Virus record (IMG/VR): IMGVR_UViG_3300027861_000005
Strand: one strand, 5' to 3'
Origin: a virus
Length of the DNA stretch: 48,453 nucleotides
The position numbers were made by a program, and so were the translations under genes. Below are positions 8,109 through 33,515 of this stretch, piece by piece; the stretch's first letter is position 1; the number at the start of each line of letters is the position of its first letter. A model generated the notes under the pieces. The model worked only from the letters and a program-made list of their open reading frames with translations. It had not been told where the DNA came from and made no database searches.

Positions 8109-9787
8109 TTCATTTTGATTTTAGTGATGAACTTATTTGAACCCTTGAGAACGCGATATCTTACTGCGTCCCAAAGATGATCTTCTGCGTCTGTGTCAAC
8201 ATCATCTGGCTTATCTGGATCTCTCGGCAAGGGCGGTAGTAACTCAACACAGTGTTTACAATTCCGCATAAAGTAAATGCCCGGACCTTCCAGTAACGTA
8301 GAAGCCTGTAAACGGTCTCGCATTAATTGTAAACCAATTATTCTTGAACCCGCCGACTTATCAGACTGAATCCAACGAACACCTTCCTTTTCCATTTTGT
8401 ATTCAATGGTGTCAACATCAGATTCGGTCACGTTTCGAATTTGATTATCTGCCGGTCCCGCTTGAACCCTAGATTTAATCCACTGCTCGGAAAATAAAAC
8501 TTCCTCTTTCGATTTAATTCGCAAAGCAACATCTTTTGCCGACAATTTCAAACCTTTATTTGTATTCACATTCTCAGTGCCATAATCTTCCTCAATTGCA
8601 ATCAAACTTCCTCTAGGCGGGCACCAAGTTTTACCATTCGGCAATCTGACTTCTTCCCCGTTCGCTTCTGCCCAAAACACTGTCGCAAACGGATGCGTTG
8701 AGCCCCAGTCAAACGACCTGTCAACTTTCCATTCGACGGGAATTTGAAACCGATCAATAACATGAACACGGGTGTCCCAAACATCATTTATTGCACCGCC
8801 ACTATTGACGTCCCAACGTCCTTCAATCCACGCAGCATGTAAATTTGGATTGTTTGCGCAAGATTCGATGAGGCCCGCGCGGTACACAGGGTCAAGGTAC
8901 GGATTCTCAAAGAACGATCCAAAAATTGCAACTTGCGTTCTAATTACTTCAACTTCTTGGCCTGCCGACGTATCAAAATAGGTTACGCGGTTCTTTACAA
9001 TCTCTCCGTTCTTTGCAACATCGATAAATCTTCGTTTTACCCAATTGTGCCCCGGCCCATTTGGATTTGTGGTGGCGAAAACTTCCAGCGATATAGGCGG
9101 CAAGGGTTTTTGATCGGGAGTGTCGTAAACGGGTTGTCCGTTTTGCAAAATCGTAGGTGTATGTTTCTCTGAGACAAATGAGCAGCGATTTACTGACATA
9201 AACTTGTCATACAGTTCTGCGGTTGGTTGCTTCGTCAACTCATTCCAGCCAATAAACGGGTATTCATGCCCGTGAAACGCATCGTAATCATCCAATTTTT
9301 TAACATGCCTGAACAGCAATTCTTCACCTGTTGGCCACACCCATTTGTATGCTGTTGCAGATGCGTGAAACTTCGCGCCGTCTTCAAACTTTGGAAAGAA
9401 CCTATTGCTCTGTGCGACCATGTCTGACAGATTCTTAAATTCCCGGTCAAAGATGATGCCTTTCCAGTAAGCACCATAACCCAACCCAACCCTACTTCGA
9501 AACCGCATTAACTGCGTTATCGTTTTGCCCGGACCTCTGGCACCGTGCATCAGCGTGTGGTGGGCTCGCGTCACAATTGCGAATGATTGCGACGAATCTG
9601 GAATAGGTTCCCACACTACATTTGAAGCTATCGTTGATTCAACTTGGGGTTTCTTTACTGGTTTCAACACCTGTAAGGTTGAATCTTGGGCAGGTGCGTG
9701 CGCAGACAATCTATCAACAACAGCCGAGAGGTTGCCCGCCCCTGTTTGCTGTGGCGAATCTAAAATTTGTCCCCATTCTCTACCCAT
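8096..9787 (-). CDS. terL: Terminase large subunit
   Basis: 563 aa with Walker A GARGPGKT near the N-terminus, a C-terminal nuclease-like region (FDWGSTHPFA) and the expected gene order. Confidence 0.88.
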   Translation of the reverse strand: MGREWGQILDSPQQTGAGNLSAVVDRLSAHAPAQDSTLQVLKPVKKPQVESTIASNVVWEPIPDSSQSFAIVTRAHHTLMHGARGPGKTITQLMRFRSRVGLGYGAYWKGIIFDREFKNLSDMVAQSNRFFPKFEDGAKFHASATAYKWVWPTGEELLFRHVKKLDDYDAFHGHEYPFIGWNELTKQPTAELYDKFMSVNRCSFVSEKHTPTILQNGQPVYDTPDQKPLPPISLEVFATTNPNGPGHNWVKRRFIDVAKNGEIVKNRVTYFDTSAGQEVEVIRTQVAIFGSFFENPYLDPVYRAGLIESCANNPNLHAAWIEGRWDVNSGGAINDVWDTRVHVIDRFQIPVEWKVDRSFDWGSTHPFATVFWAEANGEEVRLPNGKTWCPPRGSLIAIEEDYGTENVNTNKGLKLSAKDVALRIKSKEEVLFSEQWIKSRVQAGPADNQIRNVTESDVDTIEYKMEKEGVRWIQSDKSAGSRIIGLQLMRDRLQASTLLEGPGIYFMRNCKHCVELLPPLPRDPDKPDDVDTDAEDHLWDAVRYRVLKGSNKFITKIKMNWAH

Positions 9788-10283
9788 TTGCGGCGGTCAA
9801 TTTCTCTTGTTGTCGGATCAAACCTTGCTCCCATTCTGCGTCAGATGCTTGCCCGCCTTGGGCGTTAATCATCACAGGAACATTCATGATTTTATTGTTG
9901 GTTTGGTTGTTCTGAATCAGAACACTTGGACCGGCTTTAGCTTTCGCCGTCATACCACGAACATCGAATGCCAAACCCATCAAACGGCAGTAAGTATCAT
10001 CGTCCAACGATGCTTCCGCGCGGTCCAGCACATCGCGAACCATTTCCGATTCGCTCGGTAAGAAAGCTTCTTCTCCCAGTTCTTCAACTAGGTGAGCCTT
10101 CATCTTGGCAATTTCGATTGATTGTAAACAAACATCCATCAAAGACAAAGCAGCAACAGTGTCCCCAAAGGTAACTTGCATTGCTGCTTTGAATGGATTA
10201 TTTGGTTGGCGTAATAACGCTTCCGCAAATCTCCATTTGATGGCTGTTTCTTGATCAATATTTGTAGATTCGGCAGACACCAT
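9780..10283 (-). CDS. terS: Putative terminase small subunit
   Basis: 167 aa overlapping the terL start by 8 nt. The N-terminal helical region WRFAEALLRQPNNPFKAAMQV is terS-like. Confidence 0.55.
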   Translation of the reverse strand: MVSAESTNIDQETAIKWRFAEALLRQPNNPFKAAMQVTFGDTVAALSLMDVCLQSIEIAKMKAHLVEELGEEAFLPSESEMVRDVLDRAEASLDDDTYCRLMGLAFDVRGMTAKAKAGPSVLIQNNQTNNKIMNVPVMINAQGGQASDAEWEQGLIRQQEKLTAANG

Positions 10284-15489: not shown

Positions 15490-15840
15490 TTATATCCTGC
15501 TTTGGTACTGAGCGTTAAAGTCTCTTTGCCGCTTTAATCGCATCATGTAACGAAATAAAGGTACGAATCGCGGCCAATTGGTTAAGTCAAACGTATTACC
15601 TCCGTGAACCACACCCTTATGGCAAATAAAGCATAAAGTAACGCCGTTATGCAGTAGGTATGCTTGATCTGGAAACTTAGACTTGGGCTTTATGTGATGA
15701 ACCTCAAGCGGACCACCGACACGTCGGCACATTTGACAAGTGCCCGCATCGCGAAGGCGGCACGCCTTTGACCATTTTCGAAGTCGATAGGTGTTGAAGA
15801 TCACCATTGAGCTAAAATCTCGCCCCCGGAACGAGTACAA
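15490..15840 (-). CDS. HNH endonuclease
   Basis: CQMC...EVHHIKPKS...NGVTLCFICH is a canonical HNH motif. The start is uncertain (TTG at 15840 or an internal ATG). Confidence 0.8.
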   Translation of the reverse strand: MYSFRGRDFSSMVIFNTYRLRKWSKACRLRDAGTCQMCRRVGGPLEVHHIKPKSKFPDQAYLLHNGVTLCFICHKGVVHGGNTFDLTNWPRFVPLFRYMMRLKRQRDFNAQYQSRI

Positions 15841-16721: not shown

Positions 16722-16784
16722 TCACAATGACGACACTATGTCGTCACAATGATGACACTGCAACGTAGTCACAATGATAACACT
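16722..16784 (-). repeat. Three 16-bp direct repeats of TCACAATGAYRACACT (minus sense AGTGTYRTCATTGTGA)
   Basis: Copies at 16722-16737, 16744-16759 and 16769-16784, spaced 22 and 25 bp apart, directly downstream of the stop at 16783. Confidence 0.85.
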
Positions 16785-16965
16785 ATTTACTATCTACTGG
16801 AGTCAAGTCTAATGGCTTTCCTGTTGTCAATTCGCACCACGTGTCGCTGCCCTCTGCGCACCACACGCCGTTGACCTTCACCAATCCGTCCGAGTTTGTT
16901 TCGCTTGTGTTACAACCACAACACAACACAACACAACACAACACAACACAATAAATCTTCAGCAT
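16783..16965 (-). CDS. Small lipoprotein-like or secreted protein (60 aa)
   Basis: The ATG at 16965 is preceded by TTGAAAGGTTTGAT, the same box used by early genes. N-terminus MLKIYCVVLCCVVLCCGCNTSE resembles a signal peptide. Confidence 0.65.
   Translation of the reverse strand: MLKIYCVVLCCVVLCCGCNTSETNSDGLVKVNGVWCAEGSDTWCELTTGKPLDLTPVDSK
16917..16951. repeat. Perfect pentanucleotide microsatellite, (CACAA)7 on the plus strand, (TTGTG)7 in coding sense
   Basis: Counted directly. It lies inside the signal-peptide codons CVVLCCVVLCC. Confidence 0.95.
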
Positions 16966-17002
16966 ATCAAACCTTTCAAAGACTGTCTTCAATCCACTCA
17001 AA

Positions 17003-17272
17003 TCACAATTCAACTGATTCTCCACGTCCTTCACGACATGCGATACAATCACACTGCTGACGCAATCCGGCATAACAGGTGTAGCATTTCATCGGCCGCG
17101 CTGGTCGCGTTACGGGCCGACTGAACACACGCAGGGCGTCAACGTAAACTGCATGATGTTTTCGCTCGCGATGCAAGCTCGATGCGTTGCCGCCTTGCGT
17201 CACCAGCTTGTCTATTTCTTCCTGTGTTGAAATAACCAGTTCGTGCAACGTCGTTGTCAGTGAGTCTACCAT
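17003..17272 (-). CDS. Hypothetical Cys-rich protein
   Basis: ATG at 17272 preceded by GAAGGAAGAAC, with an in-frame TAA immediately upstream. Contains CYTC...CDCIAC. Confidence 0.6.
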   Translation of the reverse strand: MVDSLTTTLHELVISTQEEIDKLVTQGGNASSLHRERKHHAVYVDALRVFSRPVTRPARPMKCYTCYAGLRQQCDCIACREGRGESVEL

Positions 17273-17336
17273 TTAGTTCTTCCTTCATGAAATTGTTGAA
17301 CAATTCTCTCAAATCATTTTTAGTTTTTGCATTCAT
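17139..17336 (-). CDS. Possible leaderless first ORF of the leftward arm. Only its first ~21 codons are free of overlap
   Basis: The ATG at 17336 lies exactly 7 nt after a TACAAT -10 box. The C-terminal two-thirds overlaps 17003-17272 and is Arg-rich and low-complexity. Confidence 0.25.
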   Translation of the reverse strand: MNAKTKNDLRELFNNFMKEELNGRLTDNDVARTGYFNTGRNRQAGDARRQRIELASRAKTSCSLR

Positions 17337-17342
17337 ACACCT

Positions 17343-17371
17343 ATTGTACGTTATATATCGTCAATCGTCAA
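17343..17371 (-). promoter_or_regulatory. Leftward sigma70-like promoter, TTGACG-17 nt-TACAAT
   Basis: On the minus strand, TTGACG at 17371-17366, a 17-nt spacer and TACAAT at 17348-17343, followed by AGGTGT and then ATG. Confidence 0.65.
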
Positions 17372-17406
17372 ACCTAATATAAATATTTGTTCCACAATTT
17401 TAATTC

Positions 17407-17697
17407 TTGAGACTGAATCTCAATACTAAATTATCTTCACAATATATCACAATTGATACTCAATCTCAATATAACAATTCTCGCACAATAAATCGATATT
17501 GAGACTTAATCTCAATATTCAATATTCTCAAATAAAATCAAAATTGATACAGAATCTCAATATCAATTTTTCTTGCAAGAATTCAATATTGAGACTTAAT
17601 CTCAATATTAAACTATCTTCAAAATAATCACAATTGATACTGAATCTCAATATTGTAATTTTGAATCATTTTTATACTATTGAGACTTAATCTCAAT
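17407..17697. repeat. Array of seven 19-23 bp palindromic sites (ATTGAKAC-N-AATCTCAAT) at about 45-bp intervals, forming 3.5 copies of a ~91-bp unit
   Basis: Sites at 17407-17425, 17453-17471, 17496-17518, 17544-17562, 17586-17608, 17634-17652 and 17679-17697. TTGAGAC and TTGATAC versions alternate. Confidence 0.9.
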
Positions 17698-17949
17698 GTG
17701 CGGTATTCTGAAGGTATCCCCAATATTGAGGTTGTGTGGATCGTTCAAAGGGATTCCCACAATATATGGGGGGGACGTCCTATCGATTGTAAATTACATC
17801 GCCGAACACGGATAAAAAAACGGCAAATTAAGATTATTTTCGCTGTTTTCCGCTCGCAATCAACCAAAAATTGTGATAAAGGCCTGCGCCGTTTTTTCAT
17901 TCGGCTGGAGTAAATGGTATCATTTTTGTAACGGTGCGATATCGATCTA

Positions 17950-18032
17950 TTGTGGGGCCCCACAACGTCGTACGAGGGTATCTTTCAGCAAATACACACC
18001 GTTGTGGGTATCTTTCTTGCGAGACCCCACAA
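17950..18032 (+). promoter_or_regulatory. Two hairpins/palindromes built from the same arm, TTGTGGG(G)/(C)CCCACAA, in the long leader of the rightward arm
   Basis: TTGTGGGGCCCCACAA at 17950-17965. TTGTGGG at 18002-18008 pairs with CCCACAA at 18026-18032. GGGTATCTTTC is also duplicated. Confidence 0.6.
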
Positions 18033-18172
18033 GCAAATAACAAAGCGAAATCGTCAATTTTAAATTCTTTCGATTATTCTTTCCAAATTGTATCCACTAG
18101 GCTTGTGTCATTGCCGATATTAACTATACTGGGAGACATGAGAAGCAAACAACAAAAAACGAAAGGCGAACA

Positions 18173-18481
18173 ATGAAACTGGCAGAACAATTTGCCAGGA
18201 AGATCAAAACGATACAATTGCAAGAAATCGTTTTTTTCGAAGATCTTCCGAGAGAATGGCAGAAAGAAGCGGAGTCGAATTTAGGCGACCTGGCAGGGGA
18301 CGCCAGATTTTTCATGCCTGGCAAGAACCAGAATCCAGAATCGCATGTCTTGTGGGATTTGACGGAGTGTATGAGAGTGGAATCCAAAGAAATGGACGGA
18401 GTGATCGGAATCTCCAATGGTAGCGCATTGGCAGTTTGCTTGATCGACGATGAAACCGCTATAACATGGTTGTTGGGATAA
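18173..18481 (+). CDS. Early protein, hypothetical
   Basis: 102-aa ORF with GAAAGGCGAACA upstream of the ATG. Confidence 0.65.
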   Translation: MKLAEQFARKIKTIQLQEIVFFEDLPREWQKEAESNLGDLAGDARFFMPGKNQNPESHVLWDLTECMRVESKEMDGVIGISNGSALAVCLIDDETAITWLLG

Positions 18482-28218: not shown

Positions 28219-28553
28219 AACCACTGAAAGCAGAATACGAAGTCCAATTGTATGATGAACTCGAAAATCGATTAAAGATTAAACCGGGCTCATACCGGGC
28301 ACACGTCTTAGACGCTCTTATCCCTGATACGTTACATACTTGCGATGCGTACTATCTGAACGTCAAAGGAAACATTGATCAGCGATCAATGGGCAAGCAA
28401 ATTAAAATGCTGATGCTTGACAAATACGATCATGAACCGCGACGAGAATATAAGACCGGATTTATCTTTGGGTTCATCGCGCAAATACTGCTTTCGGCAA
28501 TGATTAGAAAAGCGGTCACATTGATCTTGGACTGGTACAATCGTAGGCGCTAA
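28215..28553 (+). CDS. Hypothetical protein with a C-terminal hydrophobic helix
   Basis: 112-aa ORF with an ATGA overlap. Its 3' end overlaps the primase gene convergently by 4 nt. Confidence 0.65.
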   Translation: MKPLKAEYEVQLYDELENRLKIKPGSYRAHVLDALIPDTLHTCDAYYLNVKGNIDQRSMGKQIKMLMLDKYDHEPRREYKTGFIFGFIAQILLSAMIRKAVTLILDWYNRRR

Positions 28554-30802
28554 TATGCTTCGAGATCACCGACAATTGTGTAGAATTTACCTGTAGTCGC
28601 AAATAGTTTCTCGACCTGCAACGGCGGCATACGCATTACATCGCCAGATTCTTCCAGCGCTTGCAAAGCCATCTTGATTGCCATTGATGGTCCTCGCTTA
28701 TCGTTAGCAAAGATTTTCAGTCGTCGCATGTTTGTTATGATGTATTTGAGCGGTAAACTGTACTTCTGATACATTGCAATCGTGATCGCTTGCGACTTAG
28801 GTTTCGACTCCAAGAATCGTCGTAAGAATTTAACAATTGCGTTGACCTGTTGCTGCTCTGTATTGGTGCCAACTTCACCGTCATCGAATCTCTTTTTCAG
28901 AGTCTCTATGCCGTGTGTGACGAAGTTCTCTGCCCATGTAAAACATTCGGCATCAATAATAGGCGACATTGAATTTTTGCCCACAGCTAGTAAGGCGGCA
29001 ACCCGCAGAGTTTTCAAGTGCGCCCTGTTCCACAACTCCGCAGACAACCCCGCATCATTGTTATTGATTTCCTCATCTGCACGGACGTCCAAATCGTGAC
29101 TAAGTTTGGCTGCAACGGAATCAAACGGAATCTCAATCCGTTTTGAGTTTTGTAACAATCCTTGCACCACTGACAACAGGGTAGCAAGTTTGTTGATTAG
29201 TTCGGGCGAAGGTTCGGCGCTCGCTGCATTAGGGTTTGATGGTGGTCGCTTGCCGAGATATTCGACGACGGCAAAACGCGGTAACAATCCGCTGGATATC
29301 ATTGCACCATCGACGTTGTCGTAGAACCAATCCGGTGTTGACTCACCTATCATCGAGAACGCAGGCGAATGCAGAATTCCGATTGTCTTCTCACTGTCAC
29401 TATAGGCTGTGGGCATCAATCGGTCTGTTGCGCCGCTCTTTGAATAGAGATCAAGCATGACTTTTTGCAACATGAGATCTGGCGCGAAATGACCCTCGCA
29501 CATTGATTTCAGTTTGATCCCAAATTCGCCAAAGATTGACAGCGTTGACAATGACCGTGATTTGCTAAATGCCCGCAGCAATGCTTGACCTGATGCGAGA
29601 TCGCCCGGACCTTCGAAGTCGTCAATGTAAGGGCAAACTGTTTGCAATCGAGTATTCAACTTTGAGATACCTTTTGCCATAGCTTCTTTACCGCGACCTG
29701 TGCGAGCCAGCAGCAGCAGATAGAGATTTAGACCGGTTGAACTGACATTGAATGCTCGTCCAGCAATACCTGCCATCAAGCCCAACGCACCGACGATTGA
29801 AACCTCTTTAATAGGCTTGTGAGAGGCACTATAAAGAAATTCGGCTATGTCACCGGCAAGTCCCGGCGGTGGTGTTAGCGGGCCTGCCTGCCGGTATAAA
29901 TGCGATGGTTTCTGAATGATTCCGTTCGTAGGCACCAGAGGTTGCGGTTGAGGCGGAACAAATGTTTCGAAATTGATTTCCGGCACAACATTGTCGAAAC
30001 TTCGCACTATCATATTATTTACATAATCTTGCCTCTTTGCTTTCTTTCGTCGACCTAAACCCGATTGCAAAAACAACCTCTTGATCTGCTCTTTGTTCTG
30101 CGTGTAATAAGCAAGGATATCGATCAATGCGAAGTCGGCGCGTGACTGGTCCCCGAAATGCCAAGTAGTTATGTCACCTTGCCACAAATCTACAAACTTT
30201 TTACCGTTGCTCGCACTTGATGCGATGTTATAGATATCAAGATCGCCATGCTTTTGCGGTCGATCAATGTCATTTGCTGTTGCAGTCGAGTGATTAAATC
30301 CGAGATCTTCGCAAATGTGGTCTATTTTGCCTTGCGCAAATTGGATAGGTGCGTTGTGATACACATTGCCTGTGAACGTCATAAATCGTTCGGACGAATA
30401 CAATTCAAACGGTCCACGACGTCTACCTTTATCGGCTTTCATCTGCGCCTTGACAACAATGTGCAGACCGTTGCCACCCGGCGAAATCTCAGAATATGAA
30501 TCGAGTAACTTTTGGATGTACTCTTGCTTCTGAATTAATGCGGGTTCTGTTGTGTGATCGAGATCAACGATAAGCCACGGATCGTTCTTGGTAAGAACAA
30601 AACCTAAGCCGTCGAAATGCGAAATTGCAGTTACACAAGAATCGAAGGTACACCATGTTTCCGGTCTTCCTACATCTGCAAATGTGAATGTTCGTGGGTT
30701 GTACGGAACTTTGGTCGGCTTGTTGCCGCCTCTGTCTTCATGCCGCCAACACACCCACTGTGCGACCTGTTGCATCTCAACAGGAATCCGTGAGTATATC
30801 AT
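28550..30802 (-). CDS. Bifunctional primase-polymerase (AEP Prim-Pol N-terminus) fused to a DUF3987-like helicase/NTPase domain
   Basis: LIVDLDH and EISPGGNGLHIVV are Prim-Pol catalytic motifs. 750 aa, with the P-loop-like ARTGRGKE in the C-terminal half. Confidence 0.8.
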   Translation of the reverse strand: MIYSRIPVEMQQVAQWVCWRHEDRGGNKPTKVPYNPRTFTFADVGRPETWCTFDSCVTAISHFDGLGFVLTKNDPWLIVDLDHTTEPALIQKQEYIQKLLDSYSEISPGGNGLHIVVKAQMKADKGRRRGPFELYSSERFMTFTGNVYHNAPIQFAQGKIDHICEDLGFNHSTATANDIDRPQKHGDLDIYNIASSASNGKKFVDLWQGDITTWHFGDQSRADFALIDILAYYTQNKEQIKRLFLQSGLGRRKKAKRQDYVNNMIVRSFDNVVPEINFETFVPPQPQPLVPTNGIIQKPSHLYRQAGPLTPPPGLAGDIAEFLYSASHKPIKEVSIVGALGLMAGIAGRAFNVSSTGLNLYLLLLARTGRGKEAMAKGISKLNTRLQTVCPYIDDFEGPGDLASGQALLRAFSKSRSLSTLSIFGEFGIKLKSMCEGHFAPDLMLQKVMLDLYSKSGATDRLMPTAYSDSEKTIGILHSPAFSMIGESTPDWFYDNVDGAMISSGLLPRFAVVEYLGKRPPSNPNAASAEPSPELINKLATLLSVVQGLLQNSKRIEIPFDSVAAKLSHDLDVRADEEINNNDAGLSAELWNRAHLKTLRVAALLAVGKNSMSPIIDAECFTWAENFVTHGIETLKKRFDDGEVGTNTEQQQVNAIVKFLRRFLESKPKSQAITIAMYQKYSLPLKYIITNMRRLKIFANDKRGPSMAIKMALQALEESGDVMRMPPLQVEKLFATTGKFYTIVGDLEAY

Positions 30803-30811
30803 CCATGGCGC

Positions 30812-31084
30812 CTAGCAATTGGGGGTGTTGGAATCGTCATCCGTAAACAGCGGCTTGTCTGCCAGCAGGTTGTATAATCGTTCGACTGCATCTACTCTCG
30901 CACCGATCGGCGGATGTTGACTTGTGAGCGTCGTGAGCCATCCGACCGATACACCGATTTTTTCAGAAATTTTGTCCAACGACATTGGACGCGGGCGATT
31001 CCGCAGCAGTTTGATCGTCTCGCTAAGTAAGGTTCGCTGCATTTGCCTTGTCTTTTCATAGGAAATCAAGTAAAGGGACGCCAA
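30812..31084 (-). CDS. Small HTH DNA-binding regulator
   Basis: MSLDKISEKIGVSVGWLTTLTSQ is helix-turn-helix-like. The start is either TTG at 31084 or ATG at 31042 (AAGG upstream). Confidence 0.6.
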   Translation of the reverse strand: MASLYLISYEKTRQMQRTLLSETIKLLRNRPRPMSLDKISEKIGVSVGWLTTLTSQHPPIGARVDAVERLYNLLADKPLFTDDDSNTPNC

Positions 31085-31230: not shown

Positions 31231-31713
31231 ATGACCGGCACATTTCCAACAGCACCGACACCGCTCGCACCAACAGCAGCACCAACAGCCACACCAACTG
31301 AGAATATCGATTTGGTGATAGGCGAATGGTTTGCGGCATCCGAAGCACTCGCAGCAGCAAAGAAGACCGAAAAGGCTCTACGCGATCAGGTGAGCAATTC
31401 GCATTTGTGGAACGCTGCAAAAACAACCGGCACGCAAACCTATGACCTTGGCAAAGGTTATGAATTGAAGATGGCTCGCACTGAGACAGTGTCAGTCGCC
31501 AACAAAGAACATGAGGCAACTCATTGTATTATCAAGCTGCGCAACCTTGGCGAAGGGGCTACCGAACGAGCCAATCGATTGTTTACATTCTCTGCTAGAA
31601 TGAGTGAAGCGGTTTATAAGGAGTTAACCGCCGAAGAACGAATGATTGTCGATCCAATTATCACCCGTAAGCCGGGTAGCACCAGTATTAAACTCAAAGC
31701 ACCAAAGGAGTGA
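31231..31713 (+). CDS. Hypothetical protein, first gene of the recombination module
   Basis: 160 aa, with a Pro/Thr/Ala-rich N-terminus. Confidence 0.7.
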
Positions 31714-31715
31714 GT

Positions 31716-31898
31716 ATGCTAGTTTTGTCACGAAAGATTAACCAAAAAATTATAATTAACGATGACATTGTCGTTACAATAGTAAATATAAAAGGCGATC
31801 AAGTGAAACTTGGCATCAAAGCACCAAGTGACATTACTGTATATCGCGAAGAAGTTTATAAAGCGATCTTAAAGGAAATGGAGGACATAAATAAATGA
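31716..31898 (+). CDS. csrA: CsrA-family RNA-binding translational regulator
   Basis: [51 protein letters not shown] aligns along its whole length with E. coli CsrA [57 protein letters not shown] lies 5 nt upstream. Confidence 0.85.
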
Positions 31899-32795: not shown

Positions 32796-33515
32796 ATGGT
32801 TCTGAATTTACCTGAAGCATTCGATCCGTCGCAAACAGCACCGTCAACCGGCAGCGCCGGTCAACTACCTGTGTCCGATGCGAAAGGTCATGTGGTTGTT
32901 ATTGTCAGCGGTGAAATGGTGCCAACCGCCGGTGGAAGTGGCACATTCTTGGCATTGACCTTGCGGGTTGTAGAAGGTGTGGCAACGGGCGCCGAAGGTG
33001 TGCATCGTCTAAATCTGCACAACCAATCGGCAGATGCTGTCAGAATTGCTTACTCTGAACTATCGGCAATCTGCCACGTTGTTGGCTGGTTGCAGCCATT
33101 GCAGGACGTGGAAGTGTTGTATAACAAACCCTTCCGTGTTGTGGTCGGAACACAAAAAGGCAAGGAAGCGGAAGGATACACAAGCGTTAAGAAAATCATG
33201 GATGTTCACGGAGCTAAGCCGGGCGAGCGGGCGGCAGGTGCAGCCACGGTTGCAGCACCAGCACCAGCACCAGCACCAGCACCAGCACCAGCACCAGCAC
33301 CAGCACCGGTTGCAGCACCGGTTGCAGGCGGATTTCCTGTGCAACCACCCGTGCCACCACCTGCTGCCGCTCCAGCAGTCGCTGCTGATCCTGTAGCGAT
33401 GCCTGTTGTTGAGAACGTGCCTTTTGCCGCACCTGTGGCACCAGCACCCGTAGCGGCACCTGTTGCACCGACTGCACCTGCGAACCCTGCCGCCGCGCCA
33501 TGGGCACAAGGCTAA
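32796..33515 (+). CDS. DUF669-like phage ssDNA-binding protein with an Ala/Pro-rich tail
   Basis: N-terminus MVLNLPEAFDPSQ...G.LPV.DAKGHVVVI is typical of DUF669 and it is adjacent to Sak4. The C-terminal (AP)n tail is low-complexity. Confidence 0.65.
   Translation: MVLNLPEAFDPSQTAPSTGSAGQLPVSDAKGHVVVIVSGEMVPTAGGSGTFLALTLRVVEGVATGAEGVHRLNLHNQSADAVRIAYSELSAICHVVGWLQPLQDVEVLYNKPFRVVVGTQKGKEAEGYTSVKKIMDVHGAKPGERAAGAATVAAPAPAPAPAPAPAPAPAPVAAPVAGGFPVQPPVPPPAAAPAVAADPVAMPVVENVPFAAPVAPAPVAAPVAPTAPANPAAAPWAQG
33255..33302. repeat. (GCACCA)8 in-frame hexanucleotide repeat encoding (AP)8
   Basis: Counted directly. It generates spurious ORFs in other frames and on the opposite strand. Confidence 0.95.

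Follow-up and report, generated by a model that had tools for sequence, protein, structure and literature searches.

A tandem array of palindromes in a marine phage matches predicted bacterial metal-uptake operators and probably engages a host metal-sensing regulator

The phage analyzed here (IMG/VR record IMGVR_UViG_3300027861_000005; the full stretch of 48,453 nucleotides is referred to as the window) carries, in a divergent control region, seven evenly spaced palindromes, which we regard with slightly better than even confidence as putative boxes for a Fur-family metalloregulator of its host. Their motif is identical to that of predicted chromosomal operators at bacterial genes for TonB-dependent receptors, ExbBD-TonB, metal ABC transporters and Fur-family regulators. 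Because the same motif stands as a predicted operator at TonB-dependent uptake genes and at the genes for Fur-family proteins themselves, a Fur-family protein of the host is the likely binder. This comparison suggests that the phage probably either ties its early transcription to a metal-sensing regulator of the host or soaks that regulator up.

The seven-site array is real and occurs only once in the window. Reading of the sequence, repeat finders and a pattern search concur on seven palindromic sites between 17406 and 17697, as the earlier note on this DNA had proposed, with the consensus ATTGA(G/T)AC-N2-AATCTCAAT; the spacer of three nucleotides given there has to be shortened to two when the right arm is written as AATCTCAATA. 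The alternation of TTGAGAC-type and TTGATAC-type sites described there is likewise borne out. The former (G-type) are box 1 (17406-17424, CTTGAGACTGAATCTCAAT), box 3 (17498-17516, ATTGAGACTTAATCTCAAT), box 5 (17588-17606) and box 7 (17679-17697, again ATTGAGACTTAATCTCAAT), and the latter (T-type) are box 2 (17452-17470, ATTGATACTCAATCTCAAT; weaker, with two departures from the TGAGAC-N3-GTCTCA core), box 4 (17543-17561, ATTGATACAGAATCTCAAT) and box 6 (17633-17651, ATTGATACTGAATCTCAAT). The start-to-start steps of 46, 46, 45, 45, 45 and 46 bp are without helical phasing, and the higher-order unit of 90 bp is present in 3.5 copies, with Tandem Repeats Finder returning both a period of 45 (5.5 copies) and one of 90 (2.7 copies, 81% matches). 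In boxes 3 and 5 the arms extend to 17496-17518 and 17586-17608, respectively; their 9 bp are perfectly matched, but the 5-bp centre, CTTAA, is not palindromic, and hence the previous description of perfect 23-bp palindromes holds for the arms only. All seven sites fit the dyad TGAGACT-n-AGTCTCA with one or two core mismatches, having T at position 7 in six cases and A at position 9 in every case. The site pattern yields 17 strand matches in the window, as against 0.43 expected from shuffles, with all the good ones in the array region, and the core TGAGAC-N3-GTCTCA with up to two mismatches yields 11, as against 1.6 expected, the four off the array being poor. The array is 100% identical in three contigs from other samples (L157, L158 and L170), giving four independent assemblies with the window, and is therefore not an assembly artefact. 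The isolated half-site ATATTGAG is indeed present at 17723-17730 but is probably non-functional, since in L170, a sibling contig, it reads ATATTGGG. Rather than filling the gap between the leftward promoter and the first rightward gene, as had been supposed, the array takes up only some 290 bp of the non-coding interval 17337-18172, which measures 836 bp, and another repeated motif occupies the remaining part.

The genes adjoining this gap lie at 17139-17336 and 18173-18481. Putative rightward promoter elements are in register with the boxes on the plus strand: at 17407-17436 a TTGAGA within box 1 is followed after 18 nt by TTATCT (17431-17436), and comparable elements stand at 17499-17528 (TATTCT at 17523-17528), 17589-17618 (CTATCT at 17613-17618 or, with a spacing of 19 nt, TATCTT) and 17680-17709 (TATTCT at 17704-17709), such that all four -10-like hexamers previously claimed at 18 nt from a TTGAGA are where they were said to be. 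A scan for predicted promoters, which registers consensus-level matches only, found 12 as against 4.5 expected, and ahead of the first early gene just one further rightward match occurs, at 17894-17923. Relative to the predicted transcription starts, the T-type sites would sit at about +9 to +27. The -10-like hexamers, which are weak, recur in part owing to the tandem duplication itself; in the fourth element the hexamer is retained though the 6 nt preceding it are unlike those of the other units. A predicted leftward promoter (17343-17371, minus strand, TTGACG-17-TACAAT) lies outside the array, with its -10 ending 6 nt ahead of the ATG at 17336, and is also found in the nearest relative, L007.

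The link to metal regulation comes from bacterial chromosomes. A scan for the site-pair pattern, using one genome per species, recovered 114 loci where a hand estimate gives about 0.5 by chance; the pairs occur in about 100 bacterial genomes, mostly of Verrucomicrobiota and Planctomycetota, and most loci have exactly two sites 30-33 bp apart. Five matches (L061, L069, L095, L097 and L120) were set aside as unrelated tandem repeats. Among genes starting within 400 bp of the pair and pointing away from it, counted over 108 loci, we found TonB-dependent receptors (35), ExbB (15, with ExbD and TonB downstream), DUF6662 proteins (14), porin-like proteins (10), ZnuA/AztC/MntC-type metal-binding proteins (2) and Fur-family regulators (2, and a third via phmmer). 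The receptor, ExbB and ZnuA-type assignments are backed by both Pfam and NCBIfam; the TonB-dependent receptor scores highest as a siderophore receptor, and the two loci in which ZnuA-type genes adjoin the boxes are from Chloroflexota. A Fur-family gene (PF01475) lies directly at the boxes in only three of the 108 loci (L080, L130 and L138), beginning right after two to four boxes, and Fur-family genes are present within 11 bacterial loci, each stretch being at most 8 kb. In L080 and L130, three to four boxes about 35 bp apart stand between a TTGACA-17-TATAAT promoter and the start codon of the Fur-family gene, a placement that is consistent with autoregulation. Profiles for Fur or Irr give these Fur-family proteins their highest scores and that for Zur lower ones, with none of the proteins attaining an NCBIfam equivalog cut-off. 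Sequence logos of 105 bacterial and 125 viral sites both give TGAGACT-n-AGTCTCA and share a T at position 7, an A at position 9 and flanks rich in A/T; the bacterial set carries a bias from the search pattern, which bears on any comparison of the inner-arm base (G or A) with G+C content between phages and bacteria. In a single-cell genome of marine Marinimicrobia (L052, identical to GOS contig L166), two boxes with the exact 19-mer of the window stand before a TonB-dependent receptor gene; a point against the Fur reading is that the G+C content of the phage, 0.44, exceeds the 0.32 of the Marinimicrobia contig.

The same arrays recur among viruses. Three to seven sites with the core TGAGAC-N3-(G/A)TCTCA are found in each of more than 40 unrelated contigs of viral or metagenomic origin. 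Such arrays occur in 31 IMG/VR contigs and several more metagenome lineages, which have G+C contents of 0.27-0.66 and no detectable protein in common with the window or among themselves. An initial set of six exact 19-mer matches in IMG/VR proved not to be chance singles, as a looser scan revealed clusters, and a giant-virus MAG (L019) was rejected as a coding repeat. Neither the region nor a concatenate of 14 arrays found a match when run by BLAST against 50,697 phage records, a result limited by the sites being too short for BLAST statistics. Many of the other viral arrays have no -10-like elements and are placed between tandem or even convergent genes, and hence a promoter switch cannot be their general role.

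Of the two readings in the earlier note, that of tandem promoters overlaid by operators of a dimeric repressor stands as to form: the sites are 7-1-7 dyads, typical of a dimeric winged-helix repressor, with a -35-like TTGAGA and a TATYCT 18-19 nt on. As to the identity of the repressor it needs revision, the motif being shared with about 100 bacterial genomes; this is most likely a Fur-family metalloregulator of the host and not a phage protein. In the mechanism that we propose, the phage would have expanded a unit of 90 bp to 3.5 copies, with each unit offering a strong box with the -35-like hexamer, the TATYCT and a weaker box past the predicted start. As long as the regulator is present in its metal-loaded form, dimers of it would sit on the boxes and keep the tandem rightward promoters closed, which would feed the early operon from 18173 onward; in a metal-starved host the boxes would be vacant and the promoters would fire. 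The array would also draw the regulator off host operators, thereby de-repressing TonB-dependent uptake, and such titration is to be expected because seven boxes exceed the two to four of any chromosomal operator and the phage DNA multiplies. We infer binding by the host regulator (from the identity of the motif and its genomic context), promoter activity and titration, and favor iron as the metal, with zinc or manganese also possible. Supposing that host Fur does bind, we would put even chances on a metal-responsive switch, see a role mainly as a sink as a tentative and lesser possibility, and find another architectural use doubtful. The wider proposal, that unrelated environmental phages carry gene-free 'regulator sponges', in which tandem host Fur-family boxes titrate the repressor and open metal uptake, is in our view rather unlikely to prove correct.

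The location of the array in a divergent control region and the register of promoter-like elements with boxes could also point to operators of a dimeric repressor or regulator encoded by the phage itself, an immunity-type module acting on tandem early promoters, with the likeness to Fur operators due to coincidence or mimicry. L007, whose primase is 72% and HTH protein 58% identical to those of the window, has no such site in its 15.3 kb, the equivalent gap included; it shows different palindromes there, of the GTCAATTTTGAC type, and lacks both genes adjoining the array, which looks like a module swap. Lambdoid OR/OL place dyad operators over promoter hexamers, as the boxes would over the putative ones here, in a divergent control region that is likewise mosaic between relatives, but have three sites at about 23 bp where the array has seven at 45 bp, and they come with a phage repressor and a phage-specific motif, neither of which is seen here. 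Indeed, no recognizable phage-encoded binder of the boxes was found: Pfam and PHROGs detect no repressor, HTH or RHH family in the flanking or other small proteins scanned and no repressor-like domain in any window protein scanned, and phmmer searches with Fur sequences against all viral ORFs found no Fur homologue in the window or any viral locus. The flanking proteins of 65 and 102 aa are orphans without a homologue among 5.8 billion proteins, in which DNA-binding hallmarks were not found, and L007, which has no boxes, also encodes the HTH protein found here at 30812-31084. Taken with the array-bearing contigs that have no protein in common with the window and the identity of the motif to chromosomal operators at metal-uptake and Fur-family genes, this makes a phage-encoded repressor unlikely. 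The same relative bears on the other reading in the earlier note, namely replication iterons or a centromere bound by the HTH protein or the primase-polymerase; this reading, along with its extension to a sopC-like centromere bound by ParB, we consider very improbable. The sopC locus of the F plasmid consists of 43-bp repeats, 12 in tandem, in each of which SopB binds a 7-bp inverted repeat, and the array recalls it in being a regular series of units of about 45 bp with one dyad site each. However, no sopA/sopB or parA/parB was found in the phage (ParA/ParB families have no match among the 47 window proteins scanned with Pfam and PHROGs, nor were integrase or plasmid functions found among those scanned), the motif is shared with chromosomal operators, and the periodicity, whose lack in relatives the earlier note had named as a refutation, is missing from L007, despite the similarity of its primase and HTH protein. 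The cumulative GC-skew minimum at 17-18 kb, which might signal an origin, is uninformative because it coincides with the switch in gene orientation, and another motif, CCCACAA, is a better candidate for phage-specific sites. Beyond L007, the contigs of the primase relatives P0004-P0006 stop short of the equivalent region and are thus uninformative, Burkholderia phage KL1 (primase about 41% identical) is without a divergent junction there, and no related loci were found by primase in IMG/VR.

A packaging or terminus site (cosB/pac-like) is suggested by features that the Fur-box reading leaves unexplained. Of 34 viral arrays, 14 have a G5+ or C5+ run no farther than 60 nt away, as against 2.3 expected, the window having a G7 run at 17768-17774, and fewer than 150 bp separate the array from a true contig end in six cases, although such repeat-borne ends can be assembly breaks (L041 carries internally the array that L038 has at its end) and the ends of loci are often mere ends of stored chunks. 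Further, arrays lie about 2.5 kb upstream of terS-terL-portal in one lineage (lineage A) and about 2.2 kb from terL in L022/L030, and the window encodes an HNH endonuclease at 15490-15840. The terminase small subunit, or an accessory factor, would then act on boxes beside a G-rich end; such a factor might even be host Fur as an architectural protein, like IHF at lambda cos. Yet the array in the window is 7.1 kb from terS (9780-10283), the G7 run is broken in L170, L007 keeps the G-run but no boxes, and one specificity would be unexpected across the terminase small subunits of unrelated phages, all of which renders this explanation quite improbable. As for RNA or single-stranded DNA hairpins, whether as a structured ncRNA, hairpin promoters or a degenerate CRISPR-like array, the G-type sites do fold well (-6.5 kcal/mol, z = -5.9), but the T-type sites fail to fold, the arm sequence is invariant across hundreds of sites with no covariation, and Rfam on 17000-18400 yields only sub-threshold miRNA noise. 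The 45-bp units (repeat plus spacer) are 60-84% identical, with spacers alike and not unique, two alternating repeat types and no cas genes, in disagreement with a CRISPR array. We find hairpins of any kind barely credible; since the T-type boxes retain their sequence without forming hairpins, recognition of the duplex is more likely.

The putative host Fur-family boxes can be set against known systems. Like the Fur boxes of E. coli (GATAATGATAATCATTATC) and B. subtilis (7-1-7 TGATAAT-n-ATTATCA), the array sites are 15-bp 7-1-7 dyads with outer TGA...TCA and A/T-rich flanks; the sites overlap the putative -35 region, and the motif is found, with several sites per operator, at TonB-dependent receptor, exbBD-tonB and fur genes. 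They differ in the half-site, which is TGAGACT instead of TGATAAT, and in being seven in number and in a phage. Moreover, whereas Fur sites cluster to cover up to ~140 bp (PMC2189734), overlapping at 3- or 6-bp offsets, those of the array are discrete and 45 bp apart. Our literature searches found no published account of the TGAGACT variant or of a natural phage 'Fur sponge', and nothing relevant turned up on titration of Fur by phages or on the Fur boxes of Verrucomicrobia, Planctomycetes or Akkermansia. The effect proposed for replicating phage DNA is that of the FURTA procedure attributed to Stojiljkovic, Baumler and Hantke (1994), in which multicopy Fur-box DNA reportedly drains Fur and de-represses chromosomal iron-uptake genes, FURTA itself being a laboratory artefact of plasmid copy number. 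A natural parallel is provided by the cyanomyoviruses, which carry between 1 and 16 NtcA sites in each genome as well as pho boxes (PMC3037559; PMC10976474). There too, sites for host nutrient-stress regulators lie in the intergenic DNA of virulent marine phages and tie phage expression to the nutrient status of the host, as proposed for the array; however, those are scattered single elements for activators of nitrogen and phosphorus stress, as opposed to seven repressor-type boxes, putatively for a metal regulator, in tandem at one locus.

If host Fur-family proteins do recognize these boxes, infection would be linked to the trace-metal status of the host, iron being the likeliest metal, in uncultured marine and freshwater bacteria, and the link would be made via non-coding DNA alone. 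While cyanophages are already known to carry sites for regulators of nitrogen stress (NtcA) and phosphorus stress (PhoB), the arrays would add an iron or metal equivalent, amplified in more than 40 phage lineages. A sponge, if such it is, would amount to an auxiliary metabolic function that resides entirely in non-coding DNA and benefits phage production, and to a natural case of a virus titrating a transcription factor. The boxes also predict a variant of the Fur box not described before, TGAGACT-n-AGTCTCA, in Verrucomicrobiota, Planctomycetota and groups related to them as well as in Marinimicrobia, and this sequence signature could help in assigning hosts to uncultured phages. Finally, such a connection would bear on how iron limitation affects viral production in the ocean.

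Sequence reading, repeat finders and a degenerate pattern search all concur on the seven palindromic boxes described in the earlier note, which start at 17406, 17452, 17498, 17543, 17588, 17633 and 17679 (45-46 bp between starts). Their consensus is ATTGA(G/T)AC-N2-AATCTCAAT, the version first proposed having been off by one base in the central spacer. TTGAGAC-type (G-type; boxes 1, 3, 5 and 7) and TTGATAC-type (T-type; boxes 2, 4 and 6) sites alternate as claimed, and this alternation defines a higher-order unit of 90 bp, for which Tandem Repeats Finder reports 2.7 copies at 81% matches. In the copies taken for 23-bp perfect palindromes only the 9-bp arms pair perfectly, the 5-bp centre between them being non-palindromic, and the array, rather than filling the gap, occupies about 290 of its 836 non-coding bases. 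The site pattern yields 17 strand matches in the window versus 0.43 expected, and the pattern search recovered no comparable sites outside the array across 48 kb. Since the array is identical at every base in three assemblies from other samples (L157, L158 and the sibling L170) despite differing flanks, it is real sequence. The T-type boxes do not fold into hairpins, although their sequence is kept, and the box arms are invariant without covariation, which argues that they are recognised by a protein reading duplex DNA.

The window represents an entire phage genome that is circularly permuted: in L158 (48,469 bp) the array-flanking genes and the non-coding region are identical, and that assembly is broken at another point. 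The genes running left from 17336 include small ones, an HNH endonuclease, both terminase subunits (the small one at 9780-10283), the portal and the major head protein. Rightward from 18173 lie about 25 small early genes, beyond which are an NrS-1-like primase-polymerase (28550-30802), a small HTH protein, CsrA, a Sak4-type ATPase, a Cas4-type exonuclease, a helicase and a DNA polymerase. The CsrA homologue (31710-31898) was assigned from its position in L009, a relative whose primase gene is 100% identical, and adjoins the Sak4-type ATPase in every relative fetched (L007, L009, L010 and L013). A 239-aa protein, probably of the single-strand-binding or DUF669 type, carries a coding hexanucleotide repeat (CAGCAC x 9; 33253-33327) with a counterpart in L007 (GCTGGT x 23; 450-591), which makes this a variable low-complexity stretch. 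Directly left of the control region are tandem repeats of a ~25-nt unit TCACAATGATGACACTACGTAG (16722-16785; 2.8 copies) and of ACAAC (16912-16951; 7.8 copies); in the matching region L170 has a longer CACAATG(A/C)-type repeat block.

Among known phages the most similar primases (~40% identity) are those of Burkholderia phage KL1 and the Pseudomonas Ab26 group, in which the gene order at the array position differs. The nearest distinct relative is the Tara Oceans contig L007 (primase 72% identical), in which the leftward promoter (TTGACG-17-TAYWRT) is preserved, as is a G-run. TGAGAC-type sites are missing from all 15.3 kb of this contig, and so are the two small array-flanking genes, which argues that the array is an accessory insertion outside the conserved replication or packaging apparatus. 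At the array position L007 (12520-12590, minus strand) has other palindromes, GTCAATTTTGAC and GTCAATT-N6-AATTGAC, which may be the sites of another regulator. In the window (17336-17371) the -10 (TACAAT) of the conserved promoter ends 6 nt before the ATG (17336) of the first leftward gene, so its mRNA may be leaderless.

A phage-encoded reader of the boxes was sought by several routes. Pfam and PHROGs scans found no repressor, ParB or Fur among the 47 window proteins scanned, phmmer with three Fur sequences found no homologue in the window or any viral locus even at E = 10, and no integrase, ParA/ParB or repressor was seen in the window. Among 5.8 billion proteins, the 65-aa array-flanking protein has one relative, a 91%-identical sibling, and its 102-aa counterpart none; neither displays DNA-binding features. 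L007 encodes a 58% identical counterpart of the HTH protein that lies upstream of the primase, and its helix-turn-helix segment is similar. That L007 has this protein and the primase and no boxes leaves unsupported the proposal that the boxes are iterons or a partition centromere.

A site-pair pattern, scanned against one genome per bacterial species, retrieved 114 loci versus about 0.5 by chance (a hand estimate), mainly in Verrucomicrobiota and Planctomycetota and further in Acidobacteriota, Marinimicrobia, Omnitrophota, Methylomirabilota, Chloroflexota and others. Five matches were discarded as unrelated tandem repeats, and most of the remainder have exactly two sites, 30-33 bp apart. Genes starting beside the pair and directed away from it encode TonB-dependent receptors (35 loci; Plug and barrel domains, the best NCBIfam match being a siderophore-receptor subfamily), ExbB with ExbD and TonB (15), DUF6662 proteins (14), porin-like proteins (10), ZnuA/AztC/MntC-type metal-binding proteins (2) and Fur-family regulators. 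In L080 (Omnitrophota) and L130 (Planctomycetales) a consensus sigma-70 promoter is followed by 3-4 boxes ~35 bp apart and then the Fur-family start codon; in L138 the boxes are followed by a Fur-family gene and then znuA. Of the bacterial loci (at most 8 kb each), 11 contain Fur-family genes; the regulators they encode have their highest scores on Fur or Irr profiles, with PerR and Zur profiles scoring lower, and none reaches an equivalog cut-off. As a logo the sites form a 7-1-7 dyad, TGAGACT-n-AGTCTCA, flanked by A/T-rich sequence. This dyad shares its frame with the classical Fur-family box, TGATAAT-n-ATTATCA, and the T-type half-site of the window, TGATAC, comes one step nearer to that box. 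Two boxes before a TonB-dependent receptor in a marine Marinimicrobia single-cell genome (L052, also the GOS contig L166) match the window's 19-mer exactly.

Dyad geometry, genomic context and autoregulatory placement are thus those of Fur-family operators. Judged by its genomic setting the TGAGAC-type motif is a bacterial operator, and in TGAGACT-n-AGTCTCA we apparently have a variant of the Fur-family box that is so far undescribed. Its apparent targets are TonB-dependent receptor, ExbBD-TonB, DUF6662, porin-like and Fur-family genes. The apparent variant (loci L042-L155) spans Verrucomicrobiota, Planctomycetota, Acidobacteriota, Marinimicrobia and others.

Viral occurrences are widespread too: the exact 19-mer ATTGAGACTTAATCTCAAT is present in six IMG/VR contigs, where looser scanning reveals clusters of related sites. 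The same site-pair pattern as used on the bacteria retrieved 31 IMG/VR contigs, and a more stringent pattern modelled on the window retrieved 11 metagenome contigs. Nearly all have 3-7 sites of the form [AT]TGAGAC-N3-[GA]TCTCA[AT]T, mostly 28-54 bp apart within 200-1100-bp intergenic gaps. The array-bearing contigs range in G+C from 0.27 to 0.66 and belong to several lineages, sharing no detectable protein with the window except a distant large terminase subunit and an HNH domain. An extreme compact form of the T-type array is seen in L165 (1202-1290) and L169 (2011-2097), with five head-to-tail TGATACTGAATCTCAAT copies at a 17-bp period without spacer, adjoining a (CGATCATAAG)n repeat.

Each G-type box of the window contains TTGAGA, followed 18-19 nt further downstream by TATTCT or TATCTT; in unit 7 the hexamer is kept though the preceding six bases are unrelated to those of the other units. 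The predicted starts (~17443, 17535, 17625 and 17716) place the T-type boxes at about +9 to +27, and hence the 90-bp unit is predicted to be a promoter-like element with one box over the -35 and one directly past the start, a layout typical of repression. The only other rightward promoter-like element before the early operon is a weak match at 17894-17923. A metal-loaded host regulator would thus repress four tandem rightward promoters, which metal starvation would release. The earlier proposal of tandem promoters overlaid by dimeric-repressor operators was right in form and probably wrong about the protein, which is most likely a host Fur-family regulator rather than a phage one. The array should titrate this regulator too, because with seven boxes it surpasses every chromosomal operator found here (2-4) and its copy number rises as phage DNA is amplified in the infected cell; such titration is the principle of the Fur titration assay. 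Arrays of other phages often have no -10-like elements and can lie in convergent gaps, which favours, as the role common to all arrays, one that needs no promoter: a sink, for instance, or an architectural function.

An iteron origin, a partition centromere, a CRISPR array and a phage immunity module each fail at least one defining feature. We keep alive the alternative that the array is tied to packaging or genome ends, with host Fur possibly an accessory factor, on several observations taken together. Of 34 viral arrays, 14 have a G or C run at least 5 long no more than 60 nt away, versus 2.3 expected (G5-G8 in L001, L002, L015, L017, L018, L020, L023, L033, L035, L036 and other contigs); six arrays are less than 150 bp from true contig ends; and the lineage A array precedes terS-terL-portal by ~2.5 kb on the upstream side. 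The window's own G7 run (17768-17774), ~70 nt after box 7, is interrupted in the sibling L170. Another motif, (C)CCACAA(T)/TTGTGGG, is enriched independently of the boxes in the remaining 470 bp of the gap (17732-18032). It also occurs at 17393, 17438, 17448, 17484 and 17629, with CACAAT copies interspersed among the boxes. CCCACAA occurs 5 times versus 0.21 expected, including the palindrome TTGTGGGGCCCCACAA (17950-17965), and the equivalent stretch of L007 contains related repeats of the CCACAAT/GTGGTAT type. The window copies are probably the sites of a phage-specific protein (regulator or origin), a role for which this motif is a better candidate than the boxes.

In concept the array comes nearest to the NtcA sites (1-16 per genome; PMC3037559) and pho boxes (PMC10976474) of marine cyanomyoviruses and to the clustered Fur sites of E. 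coli (PMC2189734); in literature of incomplete coverage we found neither this box variant described nor tandem Fur-box arrays reported from phages. We lean modestly towards regarding the array as an amplified set of putative host Fur-family boxes, which would confer metal-responsive control on the phage, titrate the regulator, or both. Such an array is unexpected, widespread and directly testable.
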